Shown: positions 19,891 through 53,200 of the stretch, piece by piece
Position numbering within the stretch: the stretch's first letter is position 1
Layout: each line of letters opens with the position of its first letter
DNA from: Mayamaea pseudoterrestris
Lineage: Eukaryota
Length of the DNA: 64,000 bases
Assembly: GCA_027923505.1 (NCBI GenBank)
Contig: BROI01000015.1
Span: 62,001-126,000, forward strand
Direction of reading: 5' to 3'
The notes under the pieces: model-generated
What the model was told of the DNA's origin: nothing
What the model saw: only the letters and a program-made list of their open reading frames with translations
Database searches by the model: none
Position numbers and translations under genes: made by a program

Positions 19891-19894
19891 TGCC

Positions 19895-20520: not shown

Positions 20521-20528
20521 GTGCTGGG

Positions 20529-28192: not shown

Positions 28193-28205
28193 GGGGCTCG
28201 TAACC
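28193..28205 (-). promoter_or_regulatory. Primer-binding site, half-tRNA-iMet (copia/Ty5) type
   Basis: GGTTACGAGCCCC directly after the 5' LTR; resembles the GGTTATGAGCCC/GGTTATGGGCCC PBS complementary to the tRNA-iMet anticodon arm, with one mismatch. Confidence 0.7.
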
Positions 28206-31768: not shown

Positions 31769-31769
31769 A

Positions 31770-31786: not shown

Positions 31787-32502
31787 TGGGTTGTTGGGTG
31801 ATCAGGGGACGGGACATTGTAGTGGTATGATTCCATAATTTGGGGTGTTGGCCACACCCATTTTGCAGATGGTGTAGGCCTCCAGGCAGTCCGTTTTGCA
31901 CCATTTCAGCCCATCCTCATGTCAATGGCACACCCTGGACATGTTTTGCCTGACTCATTGGGTTGTTGGGTGGCCAGGGCATGGGGCATTGTAGTGGTAT
32001 GATTCCATAATTTGGGGTGTTGGCCACACCCATCTTGTAGACCATTCCATGCTGTAGGCCTCCAGGCAGTCCGTTTTGTACCATGTCAGACCATCCTCAT
32101 GTCAATGGCACACCCTGGACATGTTTTGCATGACTCATTGGGTTGTTGGGTGATCAGGGGACGGGGCATTGTAGTGGTATGATTCCATAATTTGGGGTGT
32201 TGGCCACACCCATTTTGCAGATGGTGTAGGCCTCCAGGCAGTCCGTTTTGCACCATTTCAGCCCATCCTCATGTCAATGGCACACCCTGGACATGTTTTG
32301 CCTGACTCATTGGGTTGTTGGGTGGCCAGGGCATGGGGCATTGTAGTGGTATGATTCCATAATTTGGGGTGTTGGCCACACCCATCTTGTAGACCATTCC
32401 ATGCTGTAGGCCTCCAGGCAGTCCGTTTTGTACCATGTCAGACCATCCTCATGTCAATGGCACACCCTGGACATGTTTTGCATGACTCATTGGGTTGTTG
32501 GG
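31787..32502 (+). repeat. Second tandem repeat: alternating 172- and 180-bp units (352-bp dimer x2)
   Basis: Units start with tgggttgttggg at 31787, 31959, 32139, 32311 and 32491; units 1 and 3, and 2 and 4, are near-identical. Confidence 0.93.
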
Positions 32503-33175
32503 CAATCAGCACGGGTGCTGATTGCCCTCCGTCGCCCAGCTGTTTCTTTCCGCGGTGCATGGCTGTATCCAGTGCAGCTGCCCCTCAGGAGGCAGCGATG
32601 TCCATGTGGTTGCGTATGCGAAATCACCCGGAAACTCCGGGTGCCTGAGCAAGAAACCACGTCATCGATGATGACTGGCAGCGAGTCCTGTCTTGACAGG
32701 AGTCGCCTCAACCCGGGTGGGTGGGTGGGACAAACAAACAAACAAGCTGGCTAGACAACAGGGTTGGCAAGCAAGCAAGCAAGAGGAATGAGAGGCATCG
32801 GCTGGGGATCGGCAACTTGGTCTGTGGTTGTCCGTCCTCCATTGATGTCGCATCTGACGTGTCCCGAACCATCGATGATGTGTGTATCACTCAGAGTGTA
32901 CTCATAAGGTATCTTATGAGTGTCCCCAAGGCAGTCTCCTCTAAACATCCGCCCTGAGCCGAACAATCAGCACGGGTGCTGATTGCCCTCCGTCGCCCAG
33001 CTGTTTCTTTCCGCGGTGCATGGCTGTATCCAGTGCAGCTGCCCCTCAGGAGGCAGCGATGTCCATGTGGTTGCGTATGCGAAATCACCCGGAAACTCCG
33101 GGTGCCTGAGCAAGAAACCACGTCATCGATGATGACTGGCAGCGAGTCCTGTCTTGACAGGAGTCGCCTCAACCC
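32503..33175 (-). repeat. 3' terminal split direct repeats B1-A2-spacer-B2 of YR element copy 1
   Basis: B1 and B2 are 212-bp direct repeats; A2 (234 bp) matches A1; a 15-bp spacer lies at 32715-32729. Confidence 0.93.
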
Positions 33176-33432
33176 ACACGACACCAGCTAGCTGGAGGAA
33201 GTCACGCCACACAACAACAAAGGCCGTGTGGCGAGAACCGCGAAAGAAACAAAGAAGAAAGAAAGAAGAACGAGAAGAGAAGGAAACCCAGTGGCTGAGA
33301 TCCTACCCGCTCCCCACGTGATGGGGGAGTAGCTAAAGGCGAGGAGCGCACAAACCCGTCGCGCACACGTGCGCGCGAAAGATCCGGATGCAAATCTTTA
33401 GCTATGACCCGTAATTCTATAACTGAAATGTC

Positions 33433-34734
33433 TTATAATAAAATGGCGCCTTCAATGGCCTTTAAGGTCAGGCGTCCAACTTCGTGGGTACTTTCCCGCA
33501 GGTAGTGTTGTACCGACGGTGGAGACCAGCGTAGTCGAAAGGCAATCTCCTCAATGGAGAGGCCTGCGTTTTGCAAAGCCACTGCAGCTGTGACTCGATT
33601 CGAATGAGCCACAATGCTGGTGATATTCTGGCGCAGAAAGTGGTTTGGGTCGGGGTATGCTCCAACCACCACCTGCCGCATGACTTTAATGATATCGCGC
33701 GACTGCAAGTACTCGTAAGCGCCAGTGGCATCTTTACGAAAGACTCCAAGCGGCTCACGAAATGCTTTCTTGTGTAGTTGTTGGGCGCGGGAAAGGATGG
33801 AAAGACTCGCCGCTATAGGGCAAATGAAAGGATGGCCCGACCGACGATACCGACGAATGGTGAAGTTGTGTTGGCTCTTATCGTATCGAAAACGTAGGCG
33901 CAATTCGTATGCCTGGCTGCCATCTTGCAGGAGTGCGCTATGGCTAATGAGCACGTTGTGTTTGGAGTAGAAAGTAAAATCCAAGTCGACAAAGGCAAGT
34001 GGTTGGTGCGCCCATTCGCCCGCGTCTTGGGTTGGCGGTACCTTGCTGAAGCAACCGCGTTTCGCTGTAGTCTGTGCGTACTCGTTTGCCCTGGAACCGG
34101 TAAAGGCCCCGAGGCAAGTCCAGTCGAAGACTGCTGCCTCCAAATCAAGCGCATGGCGAACGTCTGTGTGGATGAGGCGCTTGAGTTTGGAGTAGAGGAA
34201 CGCAAACATACTGTGGGTGTATGGCTCGCGCTTTTCCCGCGCATGTTGCCACTTGCGGCGACTGGACAAGATATCATCTAAAACTGGATGAAGGCCACTG
34301 CCGCGAGGGTCATTGATGGAGAAGCGCCGATTGAGTGCAGTTTCAAGTAGTGCATGCGCCGCTCTGAGGTATCCACTGAGCGTCTTCACCTTGAGCGGCT
34401 GTGGTTCATCAGTGCTCTGTCGGCGCAGCGCCCGTTTGTCCACTGCCAAGGATGTCTCGCCAGAGGAGACAGCATATAGATAGCTGGCTAGGACCGGGAT
34501 TTCTTGCCCCGGTGCGATTGACGCGAAAGACTGGTCGTTGAATCCTGCTTTAAGACTCCATTTTCCAAAATGCGAGGCGCGCTGGTCAAACGTGCGATCG
34601 TTGTGGGACCGAATGTCTCCTCGTTGGCGGTGTTGTTGATCACTGACGAGATAACTGTAAGCAGCTTGGACTCGACCAGGAAGACCTTGCAATTGGCTAA
34701 CACCTGCGTTTCCGGCGAGATAACGGATGCCCAA
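33433..34734 (-). CDS. Tyrosine recombinase (true start uncertain; overlaps the 3' end of the RT/RH ORF)
   Basis: Catalytic motifs GSRANEY (R), RYDKSQ (K), AHSNR (HxxR), LRWS...VQHYLR (W, Y); CPI motif typical of DIRS-type YRs. Confidence 0.93.
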   Translation of the reverse strand: MGIRYLAGNAGVSQLQGLPGRVQAAYSYLVSDQQHRQRGDIRSHNDRTFDQRASHFGKWSLKAGFNDQSFASIAPGQEIPVLASYLYAVSSGETSLAVDKRALRRQSTDEPQPLKVKTLSGYLRAAHALLETALNRRFSINDPRGSGLHPVLDDILSSRRKWQHAREKREPYTHSMFAFLYSKLKRLIHTDVRHALDLEAAVFDWTCLGAFTGSRANEYAQTTAKRGCFSKVPPTQDAGEWAHQPLAFVDLDFTFYSKHNVLISHSALLQDGSQAYELRLRFRYDKSQHNFTIRRYRRSGHPFICPIAASLSILSRAQQLHKKAFREPLGVFRKDATGAYEYLQSRDIIKVMRQVVVGAYPDPNHFLRQNITSIVAHSNRVTAAVALQNAGLSIEEIAFRLRWSPPSVQHYLRESTHEVGRLTLKAIEGAILL

Positions 34735-37292
34735 GAGAGAGTCGACGGCGTGAAGCGAGACAGTCTGTCGGCCTCCACATTGTCCTTGCCTGGAATGTGG
34801 TTTGCCTGGATGCGGAGAGATAATGTACTGTAAGTGGCAATGGCATGAAAGAATCGTGCCAGGCGGCGGACGTGTGGTTTGGTACAGCGAGCCGCGTGGC
34901 GCATCCAGGAGAGGGCGGAGGTGTTGTCTCCCAATACATTGAGTATGTGTAGCTCATGGCGTCGGATTGGGCAGCTTTTGTAGACTCCAATTGTGAGGAT
35001 GACATTGATAATGATGGCCACAAACTCAAGAACGTTTATATGATAATCATCGTCGGTTATGGGACCACGCGTTGGCCGCGCCTGGACGTTGCGCGTTTTA
35101 AAGCCGCAGCTCGACAGGTCTTTGTCGCTCAGACGCCACATGAATAGAAGGCCTTCGTTAAAACCTCCAAGGCCTTTTGTGCTGGCATCCCCTTTCACTG
35201 TGTTTGTAGGCTCGCGTTCAACCATGAGGCCAATTGGTTTGCGCCAAATATGCGCCCACTCGGGGTTGTCGAGGGTGCCACGCAGAATCTGTAAGTCGGC
35301 GAAAGCGCCCTCGGAGAGGGCAAGCCGTGAAGTTTTCCACCACTTTCGAAGCGCGGCATACTGCTCCGGCTTTGTGGCATGGCGTAGGGAATGTTTGAGC
35401 TTGGCATCGGCTTTGCGCGCCTGGTCGGTCAATGATTGTTGGAGACGAATGGACAGGTAATCGGCCAGGTCTGCGATGGATCCACCATGGCGGATGAGTC
35501 CCAGGATAGTTGTTTTATCTTGTGCTGAAACAATCACCGACCGAGGCTTGGAGCGTGCTGTCCAGTCGTCATGGATTTGGTCCAGCATGTGAGCGAGCTT
35601 CTGCTGTTTGAGTATTGGTAGGCTGACCTCCATTGTGCGGGAATCCCAATCAAGGCCAAGGTAATGTAGCTGATAGGAGATATCGCGCTTCCACTTGGCT
35701 GCATTAATGCATGGCGCGCGGCGACGGTCATCGACCGGACTGAACACTTCTCGTGCTGCCAAGACGCTGCGGTGTATTGCTTCGCGAATAGTACTGCGAG
35801 TTGCGGCGACCACTTGGTCGTCAACAAAACTGGAGAAGCCAAACTTGTAATCCGTTCCCAACAAGCGGCCGCAACCCTGGTTGTAACGGTCCGCGGTGGC
35901 TTGCGCTAGAGTGGAAGCCTCCGTCTCAGTGATGGCTGGCGAGAGCTCCACATTGTTGGATAAATCGGTCGTAGCAGTGCCAATATCCTTTGCCGCGGCG
36001 ATCAAGCTTCGTAATTCGCCGAGTTGCATGTACCATCCAGGGCAAGGGACGCCGCCAAATATCTGACCAACCGGGATCACCAGCCATGTATGTAGGACAG
36101 TGCCAAAGGCCACGGCAATATCCGGATGGTAGTGAAGCCACCGGAATGCGGCCGAGATGTCATCAGCCGCGATGTATATCTCTTCTTTGGGATGGTCGAG
36201 GCGCAAGTTCCACAACAGTTGCACGAGCCGATTGAGCACGCTGCCGTAGTGTACTTTTGGGTTCTGTCGTGGATCATGCTCTGGCATGAACCATTTTGGA
36301 ATCTGCTTGTTGACATTGCCTTTGTCGTCGGGATGAAGTGGGGTGGAAGGATCGTTTATGAGACGGCCTTCGTCGCCGAGTCGACCAGGCTTTGGAGGGA
36401 TGTATGATATAAGCGCCAGAAACAAGCCTGGAACGTATGCCCAGAGAAAGCGAGGAAACATGATGTGGTACGACAGCTTTTCCTCCTTTCTGTACTTTTC
36501 CATAATGTTGTCCCAATCCTCCTCCAGGCCCCGATTGTTCTCGTGCTCGCGCCTTGCAACGTCGGCGAAAGGACACTCGAAAACGCTTTTCATTGGCACG
36601 CCTTCCGAGAGGATGTGTAAGGCTGTATCAAAGTTGACTGGAGGGTATCGTGGTGGAATAGTAACTGTTCGCAGGCTGTCAATGGTTGCCTTCAACTCCG
36701 AGCGATCTTGGTATTGGTGGGTGTATTCGCCGCCGAGCCATCGCAGCAAATCGCCATATAGGAAGTTACAACGCAAGAGAGCTGCGCCCATGTCCTCGAC
36801 TCTTGTTGGGCAAATTGGAGTGCTATCTTGTTTTGGATAGAACCTTGGCGACTGCAGATGGTAAAATTGTTGTGTGATGGCGCGTTGGCGAAGCGTGGCG
36901 TATTGGTGAGTGGTGTCTCCGAGCGCTGTCGCAACGTCAAGTCGTTCCCGTGCGGATAAGTGGCCCCATGCGAGGTGCAGGATGAGGTGCGGCGAGGCAC
37001 GTACATGTGTAGTGCTGATATCAATGGTTGCTTTCCCCCAGCCCGAATGCCGACGTTTGTAGACTTGTGAGTCGAGTGGCGGAAGAAAAGTCGAGCCATA
37101 TAGAGGGTGATTATGGAATGGATGTACTTTCCGAAGTTGGATGACTTCATACGGGTTCAGATATTGCCACACGCCGGCTAACAAAGTTGGCCAGTATTTG
37201 TAGCGTTCGGAGTCATGGAGGCAGTCGCGCAGACTTGTAAATGTTGTTTTATGTTTGGTATTTATTGCTGTCGGAACTTGCGGCGCAGTCAA
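34488..37292 (-). CDS. Reverse transcriptase / RNase H (DIRS/Ngaro type; start uncertain)
   Basis: RT: DDISAAFR, QIFGG, SFVDD, YLGLDWD. RH: GDASTKGLGG, HINVLEF, GDNTSA, HIPGKDNVEADRLSR. Confidence 0.94.
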   Translation of the reverse strand: MTAPQVPTAINTKHKTTFTSLRDCLHDSERYKYWPTLLAGVWQYLNPYEVIQLRKVHPFHNHPLYGSTFLPPLDSQVYKRRHSGWGKATIDISTTHVRASPHLILHLAWGHLSARERLDVATALGDTTHQYATLRQRAITQQFYHLQSPRFYPKQDSTPICPTRVEDMGAALLRCNFLYGDLLRWLGGEYTHQYQDRSELKATIDSLRTVTIPPRYPPVNFDTALHILSEGVPMKSVFECPFADVARREHENNRGLEEDWDNIMEKYRKEEKLSYHIMFPRFLWAYVPGLFLALISYIPPKPGRLGDEGRLINDPSTPLHPDDKGNVNKQIPKWFMPEHDPRQNPKVHYGSVLNRLVQLLWNLRLDHPKEEIYIAADDISAAFRWLHYHPDIAVAFGTVLHTWLVIPVGQIFGGVPCPGWYMQLGELRSLIAAAKDIGTATTDLSNNVELSPAITETEASTLAQATADRYNQGCGRLLGTDYKFGFSSFVDDQVVAATRSTIREAIHRSVLAAREVFSPVDDRRRAPCINAAKWKRDISYQLHYLGLDWDSRTMEVSLPILKQQKLAHMLDQIHDDWTARSKPRSVIVSAQDKTTILGLIRHGGSIADLADYLSIRLQQSLTDQARKADAKLKHSLRHATKPEQYAALRKWWKTSRLALSEGAFADLQILRGTLDNPEWAHIWRKPIGLMVEREPTNTVKGDASTKGLGGFNEGLLFMWRLSDKDLSSCGFKTRNVQARPTRGPITDDDYHINVLEFVAIIINVILTIGVYKSCPIRRHELHILNVLGDNTSALSWMRHAARCTKPHVRRLARFFHAIATYSTLSLRIQANHIPGKDNVEADRLSRFTPSTLSWASVISPETQVLANCKVFLVESKLLTVISSVINNTANEETFGPTTIARLTSAPRILENGVLKQDSTTSLSRQSHRGKKSRS

Positions 37293-37355
37293 CTCGTCTC
37301 GCCGATCGGCGAGCGGCGCCGCCGCCGCCTGGCGTGCTACTGGCGATGGTGGTTG

Positions 37356-40300
37356 TCAAGCGTTCATGAAACGAGTGAATGCTTCTGTCGGTTCAAACTT
37401 GCGCTTTACTGGTTCTCTGTTGAGGAATGTCATGAATGGAACAAGCATAGCGCGCGTCCATGGATTGACAGTGGCGCGGAGATTGATTTCGCATCGTCGA
37501 CAATTGTTTGCGGAGCAGCCTCGCATTCCCTGTACAATGAACGGAAAGCACACTTGCGCGTTGTTGACCACTGGTACTCTGATGTCTGAGCTAGTTAATC
37601 CATTGAGGATGGCTCGGATTGCTGCGACTGATGGCTCCTCCTCTCCAATGCATTTTATGAGCGATACTGGCGATTTGCGATACGTACCGGTGTCGTTTGC
37701 TGGCGCGTTGGGAGGCAACGGTGTTTGTCCCTGTGGCTGGCCCAAGTGTCGCGGGTGATTATTGTTGAGCTGGCGAGCGGGTTGCGCTGGCGGGTGAGGA
37801 GTATGTGCCTGAGTTTTGGCCGGCATGATATCCACTGGTAATGGCCGACTGTATAGCGGCGACACAGGCGTTGTAGTTGATGTGAAAACGGTGACATTGA
37901 ATGCTCCTGCACATTCGTCGCGCCAAAGTGCTAATTCTTGTTTCATGGTCGCCCAGTTGCGCATGCGGATGGAGGTGTCGAAGGCCGAGAGGTCGGAACG
38001 GTCCCTGCTGTGCCACAATAAAATGCTAACGCAGTGCTCGTCAGGACAGTAATTCAATGCCCATCCAAGAAAGATTTTTATCAAACGTTGCAGGCCAATA
38101 AAGACCGCGCCCGTGGTCATGAGGCGATTGCTTGCTGCCAGTCGTGACCATGCTTGCTGTGTCGGATGGTTGCTGAGCAATTCGGCCAGCCAAAACAAGT
38201 TGCCAGCGAGTGGCGAAACAAGTAAGAAAGGTGATAGTTCCGAATTGATACTGCGAAGGTTCTTGTAGCGCGACGGGAAATGGAACATGATGTGGAGCCA
38301 CCAGCCCAAGTTTTTAATCAATTGAATCATTTGAGTGCTGGAGAGGCCGTCTTGTGGGAGTCGGTAGCTGCTGGTGCTCAAGACGGTTGGGATGAAATGA
38401 AATGGCGTAATGGCTGCCGAGAGATTTACATATTGGTATGTTTCACCGGCTGATACTGCGCCTGTTTGCAAGGCTTTGACTTGTGAAGCTCCTCGATAGA
38501 ATATATCGCTCTCAAACAATGGGCGGAAGTAGGTCGAAAAACTCGAGTGCGTCGCTGCCTCCAACTCATTTGCGAAGTAGCTGCTCACTTGTCGGGCCTC
38601 ACCTTGTCCAGTGCGACCCGCTAGTACATTAATGCAATAAGCCTTGCTGATGATGCCTGGGAGAAACATTGTGTAGTCGTCGTAGACCGTATTTGCGTCT
38701 TCCTCATTGGTCGGTCCGAAACGGACGGATGGAGGGACTGGATATGATCCCAAGTGAGCCAGATCCACCATTGCTGCCACTAAAGTGCCACCAACGTAAC
38801 GTTCCCGAGTGAACATGAATGGATCGTCAATGGTATCGACAGTGGGAATGAGGCACCAGCCGAAGGGCGTTTGTGTGCGTTCCTCCTCATTTTGCAAATA
38901 CCGGTGCATGCCCGTCCGGTCTTGCTCAAACGGGAGGAATAAACCAGACAAATTTTGCGTTCTGGCTGCTTGTTTTTGTTGCTGTTTGGGACGGTACCGT
39001 TCGGGCGTGGCCGGTCGGTCCGCTTGCTGTGGCGGTGGCCGTGAGCCAGCATAGATGCACGCGTCGTCATCTTGGTCTCCTTGATCGCGGCGCTCCCACA
39101 ATGTTTGAGCGTTATAGCGTAATTTTTTGACACTGAAGGTTTCCGAAGTGCTATCGTGAGGGGTCCGACTGTCTGTCTTGGCTTGGAACGGGCTGGCGGA
39201 TGTCGAGTGGAAACGGTCTTTGAAGATGCCTGAGAGTAACTCCTCTGGAGGCGGGCGCTTGCGTCCCTTTGCGGCCGAAGAGGGAGTCATGTTTCCCGCT
39301 AAATGCTCCTTTGTTTCTATCTTCATTGTGGCTAGGCTCTCGGCTGATAGCGACGCTTGAATGTCGAGGCGCGCGTAATCCTCGAGCCAGCTCGGCAAGT
39401 TTTTCTTTTGGAATTGTATTTCGAAATTCTTTACCCATGTCTGAGTTTTTATGTTTAGCAAACCCACCATGTACCACATGTCCTCCATGCGATACGTGTG
39501 GAAGGAAGCAATGTCTGGCGACTGGTCAAAGATCGTCATGGCGTGTGTGCCCAGCTGCCGCAATTTTGTCGTCCAGTTTTGGCCAATTGTGGCTTCCAAA
39601 TGATCCCAGAGCAGGCGGCTGCGCATGACTAACTCCGGGAGATGGAAGGTATCGAATGATGCTTTACTATCAATGCTTTTCCAATCGGTCCATGTGTCGG
39701 CGACCTGCGACATGAAGCACGTCTCCACTTCCATTTCGTTTGGGCTGTGGAGGCATGTCTGCAACCACAAATCCAACAATGGATTGCTGTCCATCCAAGC
39801 GTAAACCTCGGCTGGATGCCCCGTGAACTCCATGCAGTGCGTCATGAATGCTTTCCCCGTGTTGCAAGTCGCTGGATCGAATGCAACTGCGAGTGGGATG
39901 CCATGGTTTTTGGGAAGAAAGAAGCAGCGTCCCATTGGCGCGAGCGCTGTCGTCTCGCGCTCGAGCTCCTTGTTGGTGGCATATGCTAAAACTGCCTTCT
40001 CGTCGTGCATGTACTTCATTGGTTCATCCATGTTGGCGTGCAAGGTTCCTTGTCCTCCAATAATGGTCGACTCGGGAGTGTCGTCTGGCGCCGCGTCGTC
40101 TTTATGAAACAAGAGGACCATTGGCTGCAGCAGCTTGTCTCCGCGGGGAAAGATGAGCATATCCTCCATGATGTTGGTGTACCAGTCGTCGATGGTGTCG
40201 GTGCGATCCTCTCGCGAGTTTCTTGCCACCGTCGCGAGGACTGGATTGATAGCTGGGGTGATGGGGAATCCACTCGGCTGATAACGCGGCGCAACACTCA

Positions 40301-40808
40301 ATGGTGCGTCTCCGTCGTCCTGTGGCGTCTCCAACTGTTCTTCCTCGGACTGGACACTGTACTTGAGTCCGTCCTTTGTGCCCACCGGTCGCGCCGAGCA
40401 AACGATGACCGTCTGCCCAGCGGCCGCCGTCGGGTCTTCATGATCGGGCTGCTGATTCCCATGGTACTGGCGCTGGAAAGTGGAAAGGCTGAGTATCCCT
40501 CCAATGTCTTCTTGCATCAACTTTCTGAGCCGGGCTGGCGTCCCGAGCCAAAGTTGCTGGCCACCTCCGGCTGGTTCGTCCGAGAGCGACATCCTCTTGT
40601 GGAGCTCCAACACTTGCTCTCTCGTCACTACCTCGTTTCCTGTAGCCCAACCATCAATCTGGAACTCCATGGCTGCGGCTCTCTCGTCTTTCGGCGGCAC
40701 ATTGGCACCCAGCCAAGTCGTCTTGGTCTTGGTTTCAATGGGGAGGCGAAAGCTGGCTGGGGATCCCTGGAACTCTTCGAGAGCTTCTGGCAAACGGACA
40801 AGCGTCAT
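37356..40808 (-). CDS. ORF1, gag-like protein of the YR retrotransposon (~1150 aa)
   Basis: Long open ORF in the gag position, conserved in copy 2, with a C-terminal Cys cluster CFPFIVQGMRGCSANNCRRC. The ATG at 40808 is chosen because the upstream ATG (40991) is out of frame in copy 2. No recognisable domain. Confidence 0.75.
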   Translation of the reverse strand: MTLVRLPEALEEFQGSPASFRLPIETKTKTTWLGANVPPKDERAAAMEFQIDGWATGNEVVTREQVLELHKRMSLSDEPAGGGQQLWLGTPARLRKLMQEDIGGILSLSTFQRQYHGNQQPDHEDPTAAAGQTVIVCSARPVGTKDGLKYSVQSEEEQLETPQDDGDAPLSVAPRYQPSGFPITPAINPVLATVARNSREDRTDTIDDWYTNIMEDMLIFPRGDKLLQPMVLLFHKDDAAPDDTPESTIIGGQGTLHANMDEPMKYMHDEKAVLAYATNKELERETTALAPMGRCFFLPKNHGIPLAVAFDPATCNTGKAFMTHCMEFTGHPAEVYAWMDSNPLLDLWLQTCLHSPNEMEVETCFMSQVADTWTDWKSIDSKASFDTFHLPELVMRSRLLWDHLEATIGQNWTTKLRQLGTHAMTIFDQSPDIASFHTYRMEDMWYMVGLLNIKTQTWVKNFEIQFQKKNLPSWLEDYARLDIQASLSAESLATMKIETKEHLAGNMTPSSAAKGRKRPPPEELLSGIFKDRFHSTSASPFQAKTDSRTPHDSTSETFSVKKLRYNAQTLWERRDQGDQDDDACIYAGSRPPPQQADRPATPERYRPKQQQKQAARTQNLSGLFLPFEQDRTGMHRYLQNEEERTQTPFGWCLIPTVDTIDDPFMFTRERYVGGTLVAAMVDLAHLGSYPVPPSVRFGPTNEEDANTVYDDYTMFLPGIISKAYCINVLAGRTGQGEARQVSSYFANELEAATHSSFSTYFRPLFESDIFYRGASQVKALQTGAVSAGETYQYVNLSAAITPFHFIPTVLSTSSYRLPQDGLSSTQMIQLIKNLGWWLHIMFHFPSRYKNLRSINSELSPFLLVSPLAGNLFWLAELLSNHPTQQAWSRLAASNRLMTTGAVFIGLQRLIKIFLGWALNYCPDEHCVSILLWHSRDRSDLSAFDTSIRMRNWATMKQELALWRDECAGAFNVTVFTSTTTPVSPLYSRPLPVDIMPAKTQAHTPHPPAQPARQLNNNHPRHLGQPQGQTPLPPNAPANDTGTYRKSPVSLIKCIGEEEPSVAAIRAILNGLTSSDIRVPVVNNAQVCFPFIVQGMRGCSANNCRRCEINLRATVNPWTRAMLVPFMTFLNREPVKRKFEPTEAFTRFMNA

Positions 40809-40867
40809 GATCGAGAGAAATGAGGGAAGGAAAGCTGAGAAACGCGGTTCGAGCAACAAAGGCAAGA

Positions 40868-41101
40868 ACAAACAAACAAACAAGCTGGCTAGACAACAGG
40901 GTTGGCAAGCAAGCAAGCAAGAGGAATGAGAGGCATCGGATGGGGATCGGCAACTTGGTCTGTGGTTGTCCGTCCTCCATTGATGTCGCATCTGACGTGT
41001 CCCGAACCATCGATGATGTGTGTATCACTCAGAGTGTACTCATAAGGTATCTTATGAGTGTCCCCAAGGCAGTCTCCTCTAAACATCCGCCCTGAGCCGA
41101 A
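40868..41101 (-). repeat. 5' terminal repeat A1 of YR element copy 1
   Basis: Matches A2 (32730-32963) and A1/A2 of copy 2; begins TTCGGCTCAGGGCGG. Confidence 0.92.
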
Positions 41102-42145
41102 GCATACCATCTTGTAGCGCAGCCTGAAAAATGATGTTGGCACCATTCTGGTGTCATTTGGGTGTATACATGGCCTGCTGTAGGGGCGTTTGAATGTCAC
41201 GGCATCTGCAGGCTGAGACTGGTGACAAGTTGTCACCAATATCATTGCCATCCCCTGAGACACTAGCCAGGTATACCATCTTGTAGCGCAGCCTGAATAA
41301 TGATGTTGGCACCATTCTGGTGTATTTTGGGCACCTACAGGGCTTGCTGTAGGGGCGTTTGAATGTCACGGCATCTGCGGGCTGAGACTGGTGACAAGTT
41401 GTCACCAATATCATTGCTGTCCCCTGAGACACTAGCCAGGCATACCATCTTGTAGCGCAGCTTGAATAATGATGTTGGCACTTTTCTGGTGTCATTTGGG
41501 TATATACATGGCCTGCTGTAGGGGCGTTTGAATGTCACGGCATCTGCGGGCTGAGACTGGTGACAAGTTGTCACCAATATCATTGCCATCCCCTGAGACA
41601 CTAGCCAGGCATACCATCTTGTAGCGCAGCCTGGATAATGATGTTGGCACCATTCTGGTGTCATTTGGGCGCCTACATGGCCTGCTGTAGGGGCGTTTGA
41701 ATGGCATGTCAGCTGCAGGCTGAGACTGGTGACAAGTTGTCACCAATATCATTGCCGTCCCCTTAGACACTAGCCACGCATACCAGCTTGTAGCGCAGCC
41801 TGAATAATGATGTTGGCACCATTCTGGTGTCATTTGGGTATATTCATGGCCTGCTGTAAAGGCGTTTGAATGTCACGGCATCTGAAGGCTGAGACTGGTG
41901 ACAAGTTGTCACCAATGTCATTGCTGTCCCCTGAGACACTAGCCAGGCATACCATCTTGTAGCGCAGCTTGAATAATGATGTTGGCAATTTTCTGGTGAC
42001 ATTTGGGTATACACATGGCCTGCTGTAGGGGCGTTTGAATGCCACGGCATCTGCAGGCTGAGACTGGTGACAAGTTGTCACCAAATACATTGCCAACCCC
42101 TGAGACACCAGCCAAGCTTACCATCTTGTAGCGCAGCCTGAATAA
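41102..42145 (-). repeat. ~6 monomers of the 169-bp satellite between the two YR elements
   Basis: Same monomer, reverse polarity, mostly the 28.5-31 kb variant. Confidence 0.96.
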
Positions 42146-42442
42146 TTCGGCTCAGGGCGGATGTTTAGAGGAGACTGCCTTGGGGACACTCATAAGATAC
42201 CTTATGAGTACACTCTGAGTGATACACACATCATCGATGGTTCGGGACACGTCAGATGCGACATCAATGGAGGACGGACAACCACAGACCAAGTTGCCGA
42301 TCCCCAGCCGATGCCTCTCATTCCTCTTGCTTGCTTGCTTGCCAACCCTGTTGTCTAGCCAGCTTGTTTGTTTGTTTGTTTGTTCTTGCCTTTGTTGCTC
42401 GAACCGCGTTTCTCAGCTTTCCTTCCCTCATTTCTCTCGATC

Positions 42443-45400
42443 ATGACGCTTGTCCGTTTGCCAGAAGCTCTCGAAGAGTTCCAGGGATCCCCAGCCAGCT
42501 TTCGCCTCCCCATTGAAACCAAGATCAAGACGACTTGGCTGGGTGCCAATGTGCCGCCGAAAGACGAGAGAGCCGCAGCCATGGAGTTCCAGATTGATGG
42601 TTGGGCTACAGGAAACGAGGTAGTGACGAGAGAGCAAGTGTTGGAGCTCCACAAGAGGATGTCGCTCTCGGACGAACCAGCCGGAGGTGGCCAGCAACTT
42701 TGGCTCGGGACGCCAGCCCGGCTCAGAAAGTTGATGCAAGAAGACATTGGAGGGATACTCAGCCTTTCCACTTTCCAGCGCCAGTACCATGGGAATCAGC
42801 AGCCCGATCATGAAGACCCGACGGCGGCCGCTGGGCAGACGGTCATCGTTTGCTCGGCGCGACCGGTGGGCACAAAGGACGGACTCAAGTACAGTGTCCA
42901 GTCCGAGGAAGAACAGTTGGAGACGCCACAGGAAGACGGAGACGCACCATTGAGTGTTGCGCCGCGTTATCAGCCGAGTGGATTTCCCATCACCCCAGCT
43001 ATCAATCCAGTCCTCGCGACGGTGGCAAGAAACTCGCGAGAGGATCGCACCGACACCATCGACGACTGGTACACCAACATCATGGAGGATATGCTCATCT
43101 TTCCCCGCGGAGACAAGCTGCTGCAGCCAATGGTCCTCTTGTTTCATAAAGACGACGCGGCGCCAGACGACACTCCCGAGTCGACCATTATTGGAGGACA
43201 AGGAACCTTGCACGCCAACATGGAAGAACCAATGAAGTACATGCACGACGAGAAGGCAGTTTTAGCATATGCCACCAACAAGGAGCTCGAGCGCGACACG
43301 ACAGCGCTCGCTCCAATGGGACGCTGCTTCTTTCTTCCCAAAAATCATGGCATCCCACTCGCAGTTGGATTCGATCCAGCCACCTGCAACACTGGCAAGG
43401 CATTCATGGAGCATTGCATGGACTTTACGGGGCATCCGGCCGAAGTCTACGCTTGGATGGACAGCAATCCATTGTTGGATCTGTGGTTGCAGACATGCCT
43501 CCACAGCCCAAACGAAATGGAAGTGGAGACATGCTTCATGTCGCAAGTCGCCGACACATGGACCGATTGGAAAAGCATTGATAGTAAAGCATCATTCGAT
43601 ACCTTCCATCTCCCGGAGTTAGTCATGCGCAGCCGCCTGCTCTGGGATCATTTGGAAGCCACAATTGGCCAGAACTGGACGACAAAGTTGCGGCAGCTGG
43701 GCACACACGCCATGACGATTTTTGACCAGTCGCCAGACATTGCTTCCTTCCACACGTATCACATGGAGGACATGTGGTACATGGTGGGTTTGCTAAACAT
43801 AAAAACTCAGACATGGGTGAAGAATTTCGAAATACAGTTCCAAAAGAAAAACTTGCCGAGCTGGCTCGAGGATTACGCGCGCCTCGACATTCAAGCGTCG
43901 CTATCTGCCGAGAGCCTCGCCACAATGAAGATAGAAACAAAGGAGCATTTAGCGGGCAATATGACTCCGTCTTCCGCCGCAAAGGGACGCAAGCGCCCGC
44001 CTCCAGAGGATTTACTCTCAGGCATCTTCAAAGACCGTTTCCACTCGACATCAGCCAGTCCGTTCCAAGCCAAGACAGACAGTCGGACCCCTCACGAGAG
44101 CACTTCGGAAACCTTCAGTGTCAAAAAATTACGCTATAACGCTCAAACATTGTGGGAGCGCCGTGATCAAGGAGACCAAGACGACGACGCGTGCATCTAT
44201 GCTGGCTCAAGGCCACCGCCACAGCAGGCCGACCGACCGGCCACGCCCGAACGGTACCGTCCCAAACAGCAACAAAAACAAGCGGCCAGAACGCAAAATT
44301 TGTCTGGTTTATTCCTCCCGTTTGAGCAAGACCGAACGGGCATGCACCGGTATTTGCAAAATGAGGAGGACTGCACACAAACGCCTTTTGGCTGGTGCCT
44401 CATTCCCACTGTTGATACCATTGACGATCCATTCATGTTCACTCGGGATCGTTATGTTGGTGGCACTTTAGTGGCAGCAATGGTGGATCTGGCTCACTTG
44501 GGATCATATCCAGTCCCTCCATCCGTCCGTTTCGGACCGACCAATGAAGAAGACGCAAATACGGTCTACGACGACTACACAATGTTTCTCCCAGGCATCA
44601 TCAGCAAGGCTTATTGCATTAATGTACTCGCGGGTCGCACTGGACAAGGTGAGGCCCGACAAGTCAGCAGCTACTTCGCAAATGAGTTGGAGGCAGCGAC
44701 GCACTCGAGTTTTTCGACCTACTTTCGCCCATTGTTTGAGAGCGATATATTCTATCGAGGAGCTTCACAAGTCAAAGCATTGCAAACGGGCGCAGTATCA
44801 GCCGGCGAAACATACCAATACGTAAATCTCTCGGCAGCCATTACGCCATTTCACTTCATCCCAACCGTCTTGAGCACCAGCAGCTACCGACTACCACAAG
44901 ACGGCCTCTCCAGCACTCAAATGATTCAATTGATTAAAAATTTGGGCTGGTGGCTCCACATCATGTTCCACTTCCCGTCGCGCTACAAGAACCTTCGCAG
45001 TATCAATTCGGAACTATCACCTTTCTTACTTGTTTCGCCACTCGCTGGCAACTTGTTTTGGCTGGCCGAATTGCTCAGCAACCATCCGACACAGCAAGCA
45101 TGGTCACGACTGGCAGCAAGCAATCGCCTCATGACCACGGGCGCGGTCTTTATTGGCCTGCAACGTTTGATAAAAATCTTTCTTGGATGGGCATTGAATT
45201 ACTGTCCTGACGAGCACTGCGTTAGCATTTTATTGTGGCACAGCAGGGACCGTTCCGACCTCTCGGCCTTCGACACCTCCATCCGCATGCGCAACTGGGC
45301 GACCATGAAACAAGAATTGGCGCTCTGGCGTGATGAATGTGCAGGAGCATTCAACGTCAACATCTTCACGTCTACTACAACGCCAGTGTCGGCGCTTTAC

Positions 45401-45880
45401 AGTCGGCCATTACCAGCCGATATTCTGCCGGCCAAAACACAAACACACCCTCCACATCCACCGGCGCAACCAGCTCACCAGCACAACAATAATAACCCGC
45501 GTGGAAACTTGGGACAGCCACAGGGGACATCTGCGCAACGCCAGCAACGACACGGCATCGCAAATCGCCAGTATCGCTCATAAAATGCATCGGCGAGGAC
45601 GAGCCTTCGGTTGCAGCCATCCGGGCCATCCTCAATGGCTTAACTAGTTCAGACATCAAGTGTACCAGTGGCCAACAGCGCGCGTTGCTTTCCGTTCATT
45701 GTACAAATGCGAGGTGCGAGGTGCAAAAACAATTGTCGACAATGCGAAATCAATCTCCGGGCAACTGTCAATCCATGGACGCGCACTATGCTTGTTCCGT
45801 TCATGACTTTCCTTAACAGAGAGCCCGTCAAGCGCAAGTTCGAGCCAACAGAGGCATTCACTCGTTTCATGGCAGCTTGA
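42443..45880 (+). pseudogene. ORF1 gag-like, frameshifted near 45530-45670
   Basis: Matches copy 1 ORF1 until ~LGQPQG, then continues in other frames (CFPFIVQ...EAFTRFM at 45668-45880). Could be consensus error. Confidence 0.7.
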
Positions 45881-48266
45881 CAAACTCGCCAGTGCAGCCG
45901 GCTGCTTCATCGCGGCGAGACGAGTTGACGCCCATGTGTCCGACAGCAATAAATACCAAACATAAAACAACATTTACAAGTCTGCGCGACTGCCTCCATG
46001 ACTCCGAACGCTACAAATACTGGCCGACTTTGTTAGCCGGCGTGTGGCAATATCTAAACCCGCATGAAGTCATCCAACTTCGGAAAGTACATCCATTCCA
46101 TAATCACCCTCTATATGGCTCGACTTTTCTTCCGCCACTCGACTCACAAGTCTACAAATGATGTGGTGGGAAAGCAATATTATCAGCACTACACATGTAC
46201 GTGCCTCGCCGCACCTCATCCTGCACCTCGCATGGGGCCACTTATCCGCACGGGAACGACTTGACGTTGCGACAGCGCTCGGAGACACCACTCACCAATA
46301 CGCCACGCTTCGCCAACGCGCCATCACACAACAATTTTACCATCTGCAGTCGCCAAGGTTCTATCCAAAACAAGATAGCACTCCAATTTGCCCAACACGA
46401 GTCGAGGACATGGGCGCAGCTCTCTTGCGTTGTAACTTCCTATATGGCGATTTGCTGCGGTGGCTCGGCGGCGAATACACCCACCAATACCAAGATCGCT
46501 CGGAGCTGAAGGCAACCATTGACAGCCTGCGAACAGTTACTATTCCACCACGATACCCTCCAGTCGACTTTGATACAGCCTTACACATCCTCTCGGAAGG
46601 CGTGCCAATGAAAAGCGTTTTCGAGTGTCCTTTCGCCGACGTAGCAAGGCGCGAGCACGAGAACAATCGGGGCCTGGAGGAGGATTGGGACAACATTATG
46701 GAAAAGTACAGAAAGGAGGAAAAGCTGTCGTACCACATCATGTTTCCACGCTTTCTCTGGGCATACGTTCCAGGCTTGTTTCTGGCGCTTATATCATACA
46801 TCCCTCCAAAGCCTGGTCGACTCGGCGACGAAGGCCGTCTCATAAACGATCCTTCCACCCCACTTCATCCCGACGACAAAGGCAATGTCAACAAGCAGAT
46901 TCCAAAATGGTTCATGCCAGAGCATGATCCACGACAGAACCCAAAAGTACACTACGGCAGCGTGCTCAATCGGCTCGTGCAACTGTTGTGGAACTTGCGC
47001 CTCGACCATCCCAAAGAAGAGATATACATCGCGGCTGATGACATCTCGGCAGTTCGGTGGTACACTACCATCCGGATATTGCCTTGGCATTACCTTGGCC
47101 TTGATTGGGATTCACGCACAATGGAGGTCAGTCTACCAATACTCAAACAGCAGAAGCTCGCTCACATGCTGGACCAAATCCATGACGACTGGACAGCACG
47201 ATCCAAGCCTCGGTCAGTGATTGTTTCAGCACAAGATAAAACAACTATCCTGGGACTCATCCGCCATGGTGGATCCATCGCAGACCTGGCCGATTACCTG
47301 TCCATTCGTCTCCAACAATCATTGACCGACCAGGCGCGCAAAGCCGATGCCAAGCTCAAACATTCCCTACGCCATGCCACAAAGCCGGAGCAGTATGCCG
47401 CGCTTCGAAAGTGGTGGAAAACTTCACGGCTTGCCCTCTCCGAGGGCGCTTTCGCCGACTTACAGATTCTGCGTGGCACCCTCGACAACCCCGAGTGGGC
47501 GCATATTTGGCGCAAACCAATTGGCCTCATGGTTGAACGCGAGCCTACAAACACAGTGAAAGGGGATGCCAGCACCAAAGGCCTTGGAGGTTTTAACGAA
47601 GGCCTTCTGTTCATGTGGCGTCTGAGCGACAAAGACCTGTCGAGCTGCGGCTTTAAAACGCGCAACGTCCAGGCGCGGCCAACGCGTGGTCCCATAACCG
47701 ACGATGATTATCATATAAACGTTCTTGAGTTTGTGGCCATCATTATCAATGTCATCCTCACAATTGGAGTCTACAAAAGCTGCCCAATCCGATGCCATGA
47801 GCTACACATACTCAATGTATTGGGAGACAACACCTCCGCCCTCTCCTGGATGCGCCACGCGGCTCGCTGTACCAAACCACACGTCCGCCGCCTGGCACGA
47901 TTCTTTCATGCCATTGCCACTTACAGTACATTATCTCTCCGCATCCAGGCAAACCACATTCCAGGCAAGGACAATGTGGAGGCCGACAGACTGTCTCGCT
48001 TCACGCCGTCGACTCTCTCTTGGGCATCCGTTATCTCGCCGGAAACGCAGGTGTTAGCCAATTGCAAGGTCTTCCTGGTCGAGTCCAAGCTGCTTACAGT
48101 TATCTCGTCAGTGATCAACAACACCGCCAACGAGGAGACATTCGGTCCCACAACGATCGCACGTTTGACCAGCGCGCCTCGCATTTTGGAAAATGGAGTC
48201 TTAAAGCAGGATTCAACGACCAGTCTTTCGCGTCAATCGCACCGGGGCAAGAAATCCCGGTCCTAG
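45877..48266 (+). pseudogene. RT/RNase H, disrupted (stop/frameshift at ~46160; ~440-bp deletion at ~47088 removing the FG and FVDD motifs)
   Basis: Direct comparison with 34488-37292: the segment equivalent to ~35666-36108 is absent. Confidence 0.82.
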
Positions 48267-49290
48267 CCAGCTATCTATATGCTGTCTCCTCTGGCGAGAC
48301 ATCCTTGGCAGTGGACAAACGGGCGCTGCGCCGACAGAGCACTGATGAACCACAGCCCCTCAAGGTGAAGACGCTCAGTGGATACCTCAGAGCGGCGCAT
48401 GCACTACTTGAAACTGCACTCAATCGGCGCTTCTCCATCAATGACCCTCGTGGCAGTGGCCTTCATCCCGTTTTAGATGATATCTTGTCCAGTCGCCGCA
48501 AATGGCAACAGGCGCGGGAAAAGCGCGAGCCATACACCCACAGTATGTTTGGTCCTTCACTCTCCAAACTCAAGCGCCTCATCCACACAGGCGTCATGCG
48601 CGCTTGATGTGGGCAGCAGTCTTTGACTGACTTGCCTCGGGGCCTTAACGGTTCCAGGGCAACACGAGTACGCACAGACTACAGCGAAACGTTTGCTTCA
48701 GCAAGGTACCGCCAACCCAAGATGCGGGCGAATGGGCCACCGACCACTTGCTTTCTTGTTACTTTCTACTCTAAACCACCTCATTAGCCATAGCGCACTC
48801 CTGAAAGATGGCAGCCAGGCATACAGTTGCGCCTACCGTAGCGAGCCGAAAACGAATTCACTATTCGTCGGTATGTCGCGGGCCGCCCCATCCTTTCATT
48901 TGCCCTATTGCCGCGAGTCTTTCCATCCTCTCCCGCGCCCAACAACTACACAAGAAAGCAATACGTGAGCCGCTTGGGGTCTTTCGCAAAGATGCCACTG
49001 GCGCTTACGAGTACTTGCAGTCGCGCGATATCATTAAAGTCATGCGGCAAGTGGTTGTTGGAGCATACCCTGACCCGAAACACTTCCTGCGCCAGAATAT
49101 CAACAGCATTGTAGCTCATTCAAATCGAGTCACAGCTGCAGTTGCCTTGCAAAATGCGGGCCTCTCCATTGAGGAGATTGCCTTTCGATTACGCTGGTCT
49201 CCGCCGTCGGTACAACACTACCTACGGGAAAGTACCCACGAGGTTGGACGCCTGACCTTAAAGGCCATTGAAGGCGCCATTTTATTATAA
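48020..49290 (+). pseudogene. Tyrosine recombinase, frameshifted at ~48550-48890
   Basis: N- and C-terminal parts match the copy 1 YR; the middle carries many small indels (possibly sequencing noise). Confidence 0.75.
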
Positions 49291-49548
49291 GACATTTCAG
49301 TTATAGAATTACGGGTCATAGCTAAAGATTTGCATCCGGATCTTTCGCGCGCACGTGTGCGCGACGGGTTTGTGCGCTCCTCGCCTTTAGCTACTCCCCC
49401 ATCACGTGGGGAGCGGGTAGGATCTCAGCCACTGGGTTTCCTTCTCTTCTCGTTCTTCTTTCTTTCTTCTTTGTTTCTTTCGCGGTTCTCGCCACACGGC
49501 CTTTGTTGTTGTGTGGCGGGACGTCCATCCAGCTAGCTGGTGTCGTGT

Positions 49549-50214
49549 GGGTTGAGGCGACTCCTGTCAAGACAGGACTCGCTGCCAGTCATCATCGATG
49601 ACGTGGTTTCTTGCTCAGGCACCCGGAGTTTCCGGGTGATTTCGCATACGCAACCACATGGACATCGCTGCCTCCTGAGGGGCAGCTGCACTGGATACAG
49701 CCATGCACCGCGGAAAGAAACAGCCGGGGAGGATCAGCACCCGTGCTGATTGTTCGGCTCAGGGCGGATGTTTAGAGGAGACTGCCTTGGGGACACTCAT
49801 AAGATACCTTATGAGTACACTCTGAGTGATACACACATCATCGATGGTTCGGGACACGTCAGATGCGACATCAATGGAGGACGGACAACCACAGACCAAG
49901 TTGCCGATCCCCAGCCGATGCCTCTCATTCCTCTTGCTTGCTTGCTTGCCAACCCTGTTGTCTAGCCAGCTTGTTTGTTTGTTTGTCCCACCCACCCACC
50001 CGGGTTGAGGCGACTCCTGTCAAGACAGGACTCGCTGCCAGTCATCATCGATGACGTGGTTTCTTGCTCAGGCACCCGGAGTTTCCGGGTGATTTCGCAT
50101 ACGCAACCACATGGACATCGCTGCCTCCTGAGGGGCAGCTGCACTGGATACAGCCATGCACCGCGGAAAGAAACAGCTGGGCGACGGAGGGCAATCAGCA
50201 CCCGTGCTGATTGC
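49549..50214 (+). repeat. 3' split direct repeats B1-A2-spacer-B2 of YR element copy 2
   Basis: Reverse complement of 32503-33175. Confidence 0.92.
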
Positions 50215-53200
50215 GATGTTGGCACCATTCTGGTGTATTTTGGGCACCTACAGGGCTTGCTGTAGGGGGGTTAGAATGCCACGGCATCTGCGGGCTGAGA
50301 CTGGTGACAAGTTGTCACCAAATGCATTGCCATCACCTGAGACACCAGCCGGGCTTACCATCTTGTAGCGCAGCCTTAAAAATGATGTTGGCACCATTCT
50401 GGTCTATTTTGGGCACCTACAGCGCTTGCTGTAGGGGCATTTGAATGTCACGGCATCTGCGGGCTGAGACTGGTGACAAGTTGTCACCAAATACATTGCC
50501 AACCCCTGAGACACCAGCCAGGCATACGATCTTGTAGCGCAGCCTGAATAATGATGTTGGCACCATTCTGGTGTAATGTGGGCACCTACAGGGCTTGCTG
50601 TAGGGGCATTTGAATGGCACGACATCTGCGGGCTGAGACTGGTGACAAGTTGTCACCAAATACATTGCCATCCCCTGAGACACCAGCCAGGGATACCATC
50701 TTGTAGCGCAGCCATTTAAAAAGATGTTGGCACCATTCTAGTGTAATTTGGGCACCTACAGGGCCTGCTGTTGGGGGATTTGAAGGTTACGCCATTTGCG
50801 GGCTGAGACTGGTGACAAGTTGTCACCAAATACATTGCCAACCCCTGAGACAACAGCCAAGCCTACCATCTTGTAGCGCAGCCTGAATGATGATGTTGGC
50901 ACCATTCTGGTGTATTTTGGGCACCTACAGGGCTTGCTGTAGGGGCGTTTGAATGTCATGACTTCTGCGGGCTGAGACTGGTGACAAATTGTCACCAAAT
51001 ACATTGCCAACCCCTGAGACACCAGCCAGGCATACCATCTTGTAGCTCACACTTAAAAAAAGATGTTGGCACCATTCTGGTGTAATTTAAGCACCTACAG
51101 GGCTTGCTGTTGGGGGCTCAGAATGTCACAACATCTGCGGGCTGAGACTGGTGACAAGTTGTCATCAAATACATTGCCAACCCCTGAGACACCAGCCAGG
51201 CATACCATCTTGTTGCGCAGCCTAAAACATGATATTGGCACCATTCTGGTGTAATTTGGGCACCTACAGGGCTTGCTGTTGGGGGATTTGAATGTCACAA
51301 CATCTGTGGGCTGAGACTGGTGACAAGTTGTCACCAAATACATTGCCAGCCCCTGAGACACCAGCCAGGCATACCATCTTTTAGCGCAGCCTGAATAAAG
51401 ATGTAGGCACCATTCTGGTGTAATTTGGGCACCTACAGGGCTTGCTGTAGGGGAGTTTGGGTGTCACGGCATCTGCAGGTTGAGACTGGTGACAAGTTGT
51501 CACCAAATACATTGTCAGTCCCTGAGACACCAACCAAGCCTACCATCTTGTAGCGCAGCCGGAATAATGATGTTGGAACCATTCTGGTGTATTTTGGGCA
51601 CCTACAGGGCTTGCTGTAGGGGCGTTTGCATGTCACGACATCGCGGGCTGAGACTAGTGACAAGTTGTCACCAAATACATTGCCATCACTTGAGACACCA
51701 GCCAGGCATACCATCTTGTAGCGCAGCCTAAGTAATGATGTTGCCACCATTTCTGGTGTGATTTGGGTATATACATGGCCTACTGTAGATGCGTTTGAAC
51801 GTCACGGCATCCGCAGGCTGAGATTGGTGACAAGTTGTCACCAAATACATTGCCATCCCCTGAGACACCAGCCAGGCTTACCATCTTGTAGCACAGCCGG
51901 AATAATGATGTTGGAACCATTCTGGTGTAATTTGGGCACCTACAGGGCTTGCTGTAGGGGCGTTTGCATGTCACGACATCTGCAGGCTGAGACTGGTGAC
52001 AAGTTGTCACCAAATACAATTTATTACCTGAGACACCAGCCAGGCATACCATCGTGTAACGCAGCCTAAATAATGATGTTGCCACCATTTCTGGTGTGAT
52101 TTGGGTATATACATGGCCTACTGTAGGTGTGTTTGAACGTCACAACATCTGCGGGCTGAGACTGGTGACAAGTTGTCACCAAATACAATTTATTACCTGA
52201 GACACCAGCCAGGCATACCATCGTGTAACGCAGCCTAAATAATGATGTTGCCACCATTTCTGGTGTGATTTGGGTATATACATGGCCTACTGTAGGTGTG
52301 TTTGAACGTCACAACATCTGCGGGCTGAGACTGGTGACAAGTTGTCACCAAATACATTGCCAACCCCTGAGACACCAGCCAGGCATACCATACCATCTTG
52401 TAGCGCAGCCTGAACAATGATGTTGGCACCATTCTGGTGTAATTTGGGCACCGACAGGGCTTGCTATAGGGGGGTTTGAATGTCACAGCATCTGCGGGCT
52501 GAGACTGGTGACAAGTTGTCACCAAATACATTGTCATCCCCTGAGACACCAGCCAAGCCTACCATCTTGTAGCGCAGCCTGAATAATGATGTTGGCGCCA
52601 TTCTGGTGTATTTTGGGCACCTACAGGGCTTGCTGTAGGGGCATTTGAATGTCACAACATCTGCGGGCTGAGACTGGTGACAAGTTGTCACCAAATACAT
52701 TGCCAATTCCTGAGACACCAGCCAGGCATACCATACCATCTTGTAGCGCAGCCTGAACAATGATGTTGGCACCATTCTGGTGTAATTTGGGCACTGACAG
52801 GGCTTGCTGTAGGGGGGTTTGGATGTCACGGCATCTGCAGGCTGAGACTGGTGACAAGTTGTCACCAAATACATTGTCATCCCCTGAGACACCAGCCAAG
52901 CCTACTATCTTGTAGCGCAGCCTGAATAATGATGTTGGCGCCATTCTGGTGTATTTTGGGCACCTACAGGGCTTGCTGTAGGGGCATTTGAATGTCACAA
53001 CATCTGCAGGCTGAGACTGGTGACAAGTTGTCACCAAATACATTGCCAGCCCCTGAGACACCAGCAAAGCCTACCATCTTGTAGCGCAGCCTGAACAATG
53101 ATGTTGGCACCATTCTGGTGTATTTTGGGCACCTACAGGGCTTGCTGTAGGGGTGTTTGAATGTCACGTCAATTTTGGGATGAGACTGGTGACAAGTTGT

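Follow-up and report, generated by a model that had tools for sequence, protein, structure and literature searches.

DIRS-1, the founding tyrosine-recombinase (YR) retrotransposon, is enriched in the centromeres of Dictyostelium, as described in PMC7192593 and PMC3950715, and passages of PMC6387122 report that the DIRS1-type element YNoto piles up at the centromeres of Antarctic notothenioid fishes. The Ngaro-like elements of fish, amphibians and fungi carry split direct repeats in the order A1...B1-A2-B2, according to the passages of PMC9210276 and PMC6681497 that deal with them. Here we describe two copies of a YR retrotransposon in a 64,000-nt stretch of genomic DNA from Mayamaea pseudoterrestris, a pennate diatom (assembly GCA_027923505.1, contig BROI01000015.1, positions 62,001 to 126,000 of the forward strand). 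This whole stretch is referred to as the window, and positions are counted from its first letter. Much of the window consists of two satellites, a 169-bp satellite and a 176/352-bp tandem repeat. The reading that we favour, with fair but limited confidence, is that a divergent diatom YR lineage with a Ngaro-type layout has accumulated and been retained in an extensive block of two satellites that is poor in genes, within a small genome in which genes are densely packed. In PMC and bioRxiv full text, our searches turned up neither an account of a split-direct-repeat YR family from a diatom nor one of satellite centromeres in diatoms.

Copy 1 (32503..41101, minus strand; 8599 bp) contains three long open reading frames (ORFs) and is apparently autonomous. 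Its 5' end is formed by repeat A1 (40868..41101, minus strand), which begins with TTCGGCTCAGGGCGG and is identical to A2 (32730..32963, minus strand) at 233 of 234 positions. B1 (32964..33175, minus strand) and B2 (32503..32714, minus strand) are identical over 212/212 positions. B2 constitutes the 3' end of the element, and its final 22 nt, CAATCAGCACCCGTGCTGATTG, are a palindrome with 10-bp arms. At the B1-A2 junction GTGCTGATTG runs directly into TTCGGCTC, which is a join of both element ends, while a 15-nt spacer, CCCACCCACCCACCC (32715-32729), lies between A2 and B2. Copy 2 (42146..50213, plus strand; 8068 bp) is defective and has the same arrangement, with A1 at 42146-42379, B1 at ~49549-49752, A2 at 49753-49986 and B2 at 50002-50213, all on the plus strand; its A1 and A2 are identical (234/234). 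The proposal of a first-pass annotation that the window holds two copies of one YR family with A1...B1-A2-B2 split direct repeats is thereby confirmed for both copies. The terminal words of the element are confined, within the window, to the ends and repeats of these two copies; the 5' word TTCGGCTCAGGGCGG occurs four times (0.07 expected), and no other fragments, nested copies or solo repeats of the element were found elsewhere in the window. Inverted repeats of at least 60 nt were absent within either copy, all 15 inverted pairs being matches of copy 1 to copy 2. The 5' junctions quoted in the first-pass annotation also read as written there, 30 nt apart in the satellite monomer and in opposite orientations. 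The 3' end of copy 2 needed correction, from 50214 to 50213, as base 50214 is one extra C, at a position where uninterrupted 169-bp monomers have T. A pre-existing monomer variant, AATAACGATG, was considered as the source of this C and rejected, with 0 occurrences against 135 of AATAATGATG.

The second and third ORFs of copy 1 encode the enzymes expected of a YR retrotransposon. ORF2 (34488..37355, minus strand) spans 955 amino acids from stop to stop, with a reverse transcriptase (RT) at ~35556-36488 and an RNase H (RH) at ~34746-35213. The RT motifs AADD (D398-D399) and FVDD (D512-D513) are invariant in an alignment of the query with 17 of its 31 relatives, and in the same alignment the acidic RNase H residues D723, E777 and D863 are conserved in at least 90%. 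A fold search with the structural model of ORF2 (predicted local distance difference test, pLDDT, 66) gave a single match at E ≤ 0.001; the RT of cauliflower mosaic virus scored 2.8e-4, and the RTs of foamy virus and Moloney murine leukaemia virus were recovered along with RNase H domains. On the modelled fold, ORF2 is an RT of retroviral/caulimoviral type followed by an RNase H. It ends ~90 residues beyond the last RNase H motif and has no room for a methyltransferase, and none was found by Pfam in the ORFs.

ORF3 (33433..34953, minus strand; 506 amino acids) is read in the -1 frame, shares 465 nt with ORF2 and has its catalytic domain at ~33484-34116. Its catalytic residues are R288, H450, R453, W476 and Y484. 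When the query was aligned with 23 of its 178 YR relatives, R288, H450 and Y484 proved invariant, and R453 and W476 at least 90% conserved. The model of ORF3 (pLDDT 77) found Cre as its best match (E 1e-5) among 30 matches at E ≤ 0.001; among the matches listed at this threshold all are Cre or Tre, and the Tn1549 integrase, XerH and XerA rank just after them, at 1.4e-3 to 7.5e-3. In addition, the HxxR..W..Y stretch of the YR profile aligned onto the catalytic stretch of Cre, onto residues which we take to be H289, R292, W315 and Y324. Together, the modelled fold and the conserved residues identify ORF3 as a tyrosine recombinase.

Sequence-profile methods recognized next to none of this. Pfam matched 0/3 of the copy 1 ORFs, and among family members it matched RVT_1 in 0/18 and Phage_integrase in 1/18, at E 0.23. 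PDB sequence profiles gave 0 matches for RT/RH and, for the YR, only Cre at E 0.42. Nor did Pfam detect a DDE integrase or a protease in ORF1, ORF2 or ORF3. It is the fold searches and the conserved catalytic residues, not Pfam, that bear out what the first-pass annotation said of RT/RH and YR. The YR has 178 relatives with E ≤ 0.001 among the candidates scored, many of them environmental. Because many relatives are unnamed, and because the best 120 of the 178 carry no Pfam domain, this lineage likely sits among the "unclassified" repeats of diatom genome annotations. In the repeat table of M. pseudoterrestris itself, Gypsy/DIRS1 accounts for 0.32%, unclassified repeats for 7.36% and satellites for 0 (Table S3, PMC9724779). 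Metagenomes searched with the 5'-terminal 20 nt of the element gave seven loci, of which 0/7 matched beyond 21 nt, as expected of chance matches; viral contigs gave 15 pattern matches, 0 of which encode a relative of the element.

ORF1 (37356..40811, minus strand) is 1151 amino acids long when counted from the first methionine that matches the N-termini of its relatives. An exhaustive search found 64 relatives, 12 of them below 1e-30. With 23 of the 64 aligned, the C-terminal half is conserved and has a Cys/His motif at its end. No known domain was found in ORF1, either by Pfam on the query and 23 relatives, by PDB sequence profile (0 matches) or in the Atlas. It had been called gag-like. The placement in first position stands; the name is a guess from this position and the C-terminal Cys/His motif. 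The nearest named protein is a hypothetical protein of M. pseudoterrestris, 98% identical, and the nearest named proteins of RT/RH and YR are likewise hypothetical proteins of this species.

The layout of split direct repeats, the order ORF1, RT/RH, YR and the lack of a detected methyltransferase agree with the Ngaro-type assignment that had been made at first pass. What places the element in the DIRS order is an RT and RNase H of LTR (long terminal repeat)-retroelement type, a YR rather than a DDE integrase and, at copy 2, an insertion that left no target-site duplication. By architecture only, it is a Ngaro-type element, and a new, very divergent member of the DIRS order. Two other identities were tried and rejected. 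A DIRS-1-type identity fails as neither copy has inverted terminal repeats. VIPER-like elements have their YR ahead of the RT; here the YR is downstream of RT/RH and the host is a diatom, which argues against a VIPER-like identity.

Copy 1 has signals that could explain how its ORFs are expressed. ORF1 terminates at a TGA (37356-37358) in the same frame as ORF2, from which it is parted by this single codon, and the TGA is followed by CAA CCA. The sequence stop-CAR-YYA is a leaky context in plant viruses. ORF2 has no methionine ahead of residue 188, that is, none before its conserved part. Because of the shared frame, the single TGA with CAA CCA and the lack of an early ORF2 methionine, the TGA points to a programmed readthrough site and not to a disrupted gene. 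For the YR, environmental relatives start with MGIRY, and the corresponding codon is TTG in copies 1 and 2. The ORF2/ORF3 overlap has no slippery heptamer for -1 frameshifting. A candidate intron of 80 nt with GT..AG ends (34806..34885, minus strand) lies in the RNase H coding region; if it were spliced out, the RT/RH frame would run on into that of the YR, joining ..HAARC to KPHSRQGQCGG... The Mayamaea gene model P0007 has a homologous junction, which may be a real intron or an artefact of the gene predictor.

Sequencing runs with related material were also considered. Six of them (X1-X6), labelled as five organisms (A-E) and coming from two studies, contain near-identical 31-mers of the YR element, and run X4 (organism C) also contains both satellites. 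The runs may come from very closely related organisms, or one organism may have been present in several of the samples. Contigs of X1 and X2 have a joint at 34727-34828 that skips 100 nt; it matches no GT..AG candidate and we leave it uninterpreted.

Copy 1 retains all catalytic residues and is a real, well-preserved and apparently active YR retrotransposon. Copy 2 is distinct from it and defective, being derived by deletion. It has lost 443 nt within the RT, and 23 of its 33 indels relative to copy 1 shift the frame. Scored per 250 nt, the identity between the two copies is a mosaic of values of 84-100%. Because a defective copy has kept near-perfect terminal repeats, copy 2 was probably mobilised recently in trans; trans action of the DIRS-1 RT is reported in PMC7192593. 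The insertion site of copy 2 is clean. Its flanks (120+120 nt) align ungapped over 240/240 nt to uninterrupted 169-bp monomers, with at most 96.7% identity, and no target duplication is present. Copy 2 is a conservative insertion, as expected of a YR element. Copy 1 has different flanks at its two ends, with the 176/352-bp repeat at the 3' end and the 169-bp satellite at the 5' end; since these flanks belong to different satellites, a target duplication cannot be judged for this copy. An inverted duplication as the origin of both copies is ruled out by the differing flanks, the 443-nt deletion and the mosaic divergence. The copies are two independent, recent insertions.

The region into which they inserted is mostly tandem satellite, from position 1 to ~58825, and transposable elements make up 24,966 bp of this ~58.8-kb block. 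The 169-bp satellite occupies 1..19895 in opposite orientation (array 4-18761, degenerate beyond ~18.7 kb), 28513..31768, the 41102..42145 interval between the two 5' ends (6.2 monomers) and 50214..58825 on the right flank of copy 2 (~50 copies), so that its orientation flips between ~19.9 and 28.5 kb. Two monomer subfamilies can be told apart, alpha (..CATTTGGGTATATACATGGCC..) at 28513-31768 and 41102-42145, and beta (..ATTTTGGGCACCTACAGGGCT..) at 50214-58825 and 4-19895. The second satellite flanks the 3' end of copy 1 (31787..32502) and recurs as a degenerate stretch at 19899..20213. Its unit is 176 bp with a higher-order period of 352 bp and 99% identity between dimers. The two satellites are unrelated, the longest word in common being 11 nt, and the GC (guanine plus cytosine) content of the block is ~50-53%. 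By contig number and summed depth in four runs, the 176-bp satellite is similar in abundance to the 169-bp satellite. In X1 the summed word depth was ~1e6 for satellite bins and ~120-150 for the element; these values are not copy numbers and are taken only as "very abundant". Ordinary genes begin ~0.7 kb to the right of the block, among them those for a WD40 protein, a DUF1681/NECAP-like protein and a U1-70K RRM protein.

Some further features of the satellites were observed. Every 169-bp monomer has a dyad with 9-bp arms, TGGTGACAA-G-TTGTCACCA, and beta monomers have a second dyad, CCTACAG-GGCTTG-CTGTAGG. The 176-bp block begins and finishes with TGGGTTGTTGGG. A telomere-like run, GTTAGGGTTAGGGTTAG (31765-31785), the only TTAGGG repeat of the window, marks the exact point where the 169-bp array meets the 176/352-bp array; it may be an interstitial telomere remnant of a healed or fused break. 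The stretch from the block to the genes (58826-59470) has a (CACT)n-like run (~59100-59120) and, further on, a stray, degenerate piece of a monomer (~59215-59270). Rfam and tRNA scans of the window returned nothing.

The block holds another young retroelement. A Ty1/copia element (20214..28512, minus strand) has an open polyprotein of 2534 amino acids with RVT_2 and gag_pre-integrs domains, between 292-bp LTRs that are identical at 291/292 positions. It is almost intact and as young as the YR element. The N-terminal part of its polyprotein is unusually long, at ~1400 amino acids. Its flanks are mismatched, with the 176-bp repeat on the left and the 169-bp satellite on the right, and it shows no 5-bp target duplication. 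The heterologous flanks of both copy 1 and the copia element presumably arose by ectopic recombination between copies in different arrays, and it may be through such exchanges between copies that the two satellites became joined.

Since a young copia element sits in the same block, colonisation of the block is not specific to the YR family. The life cycle of the element could be pictured as follows. Transcription would run from A1 into B2; the ORF1-RT/RH product would be made by readthrough of the TGA, and the YR by splicing of the 80-nt intron or from a non-AUG start. The internal B1-A2 junction would serve during reverse transcription to rebuild the ends, and conservative recombination by the YR would then insert the element without target duplication. 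Its presence in the block would reflect accumulation and retention in a gene-poor region, where the young copia element is kept too. Several observations weigh against this reading. The readthrough, splicing and replication steps are all ones that we infer. The 4/4 YR junctions in the window fall in satellite DNA, and the copies lie only 1,044 bp apart, for which the chance is ~0.06 with two random insertions in the 33.8 kb of satellite in the window. In X2, at least two more contig joints bring an element 5' end up against the 169-bp satellite, at a point 55-60 nt further into the monomer; the shorter side of these joints is 25-26 nt, and the hint is a weak one. Within the window, which is as far as copies could be sought, none was seen outside satellite DNA. 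Finally, DIRS-1-type YR elements concentrate at centromeres in other organisms.

The junctions in satellite DNA, the short distance between the copies, the joints in X2 and the DIRS-1 precedent speak for active targeting, in which satellite sequence, or the possibly centromeric chromatin on it, would be recognised by the family and preferred for integration; the YNoto precedent supports it as well. We give this explanation little credence. Insertion is scattered over monomer positions 0, 30 and possibly ~55-60 and occurs in both orientations. The unrelated 176-bp satellite contains one end of copy 1, so that sequence specificity is lacking. That the two 5' junctions lie only ~30 nt apart, a point made in the first-pass annotation, carries no information, since two points on a circle of 169 nt fall this close with a chance of ~0.36. 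The annotation's placement of both 5' ends in the 169-bp satellite held, and the 3' flank of copy 2 is that satellite too; the 3' end of copy 1 is in the 176/352-bp repeat instead. The B-A junction of the element shows no homology to either satellite beyond a longest match of 8 nt. A chromodomain or other targeting domain was not found by Pfam in ORF1-3 or their relatives, although no function is assigned to ~1150 residues in ORF1 or to the N-terminal 330 residues in ORF2. The copia element in the same block also speaks against targeting, as do the centromeres of Phaeodactylum, the sole diatom centromeres met with in the literature searched, which 10.1101/096016 describes as low in GC and without repeats, in contrast to these satellites. 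Given the DIRS-1 and YNoto precedents, centrophily in a YR element is also less unusual than had been proposed.

A bolder scenario is that the 169- and 176-bp arrays are the regional centromeres of this raphid pennate diatom, unlike the short ones of Phaeodactylum, with the YR lineage, alongside the copia element, as a resident whose copies home there, recombine with one another, and join and reshuffle the satellites. We hold this to be rather unlikely. The monomer size of the 169-bp satellite is suggestive of a centromeric role, while by analogy with Phaeodactylum, a different diatom, binding of CENP-A to the satellite would not be expected.

Homing in the narrower sense, where new copies integrate beside or into existing ones by YR recombination or homology and clusters grow around a surviving first copy, appears improbable to us. 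It would account for two copies lying head to head at such a short distance, for their mosaic identity, which suggests exchange between copies, and for the heterologous flanks of copy 1, which are expected after inter-copy recombination; "homing properties" of DIRS1 are mentioned in a passage of PMC6387122. Copy 2, however, sits in plain satellite and not within another copy, the window contains no nested copy or solo repeat, and there are two copies only to judge by. Very improbable is an assembly artefact, in which the flanks of copy 1 and the copia element were mis-joined through 8-kb repeats in the long-read assembly and the local map is unreliable: both elements do share one mismatch pattern (176-bp repeat left, 169-bp satellite right), the copia element lacks a target duplication and no contig among those matched from the sequencing runs spans the stretch, but ectopic recombination between copies, common in repeat blocks, yields an identical picture, no internal inconsistency is seen in copy 2 or at the two 5' junctions, and the identity of the element is unaffected.

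Accumulation and retention in the gene-poor block is the reading that we favour. With this element, the tyrosine-recombinase retrotransposons, which form a small and little-known order, gain a diatom lineage. The locus also illustrates that a diatom genome of ~30 Mb can contain long arrays of nucleosome-sized satellites under colonisation by young retroelements.

Among the known systems, the Ngaro-like elements resemble the diatom element in their near-identical split repeats, overlapping frames, ORF1-RT/RH-YR order and lack of a methyltransferase domain. The repeats are of comparable size, with A of 234 bp and B of 212 bp in the diatom element against 236 and 152 bp in Xenopus DIRS-53_XT, as given in a passage of PMC9210276. 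The diatom element differs in that its RT and YR are too divergent for Pfam, its ORF1 reaches 1151 amino acids, a single in-frame TGA stands between ORF1 and RT/RH, the YR has no AUG, an SGNH hydrolase ORF is lacking and the host is a diatom. The split-direct-repeat pattern is shared with PAT-like and VIPER-like elements too, according to a passage of PMC6681497. PAT-like elements, however, belong with the DIRS-like group, marked by a methyltransferase-like domain; VIPER-like elements are restricted to kinetoplastids according to a passage of PMC9210276, whereas the present host is a diatom.

With the CRM elements of plants, the diatom locus has in common that young retroelements are interspersed in nucleosome-sized satellite arrays. 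CRM chromoviruses and similar elements are centromere-specific LTR retrotransposons. CRM elements use a DDE integrase whose tail serves for targeting. The diatom element has a YR instead, and no targeting domain was detected in it; the integrase-type resident of the window is the copia element. The comparison with DIRS-1 extends to the replication cycle, where PMC7192593 describes DIRS-1 cDNA as mostly linear and single-stranded, which calls the circular-intermediate model into question for DIRS-1. DIRS-1 and YNoto have terminal repeats that are inverted, plus an internal complementary region, in place of the split direct repeats of the diatom element. Moreover, clusters of the Dictyostelium element themselves form the centromere, without a satellite, while the diatom element resides in a satellite block with a putative link to the centromere. 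The likeness between these systems is that YR retrotransposons pile up in centromeric or pericentromeric heterochromatin.

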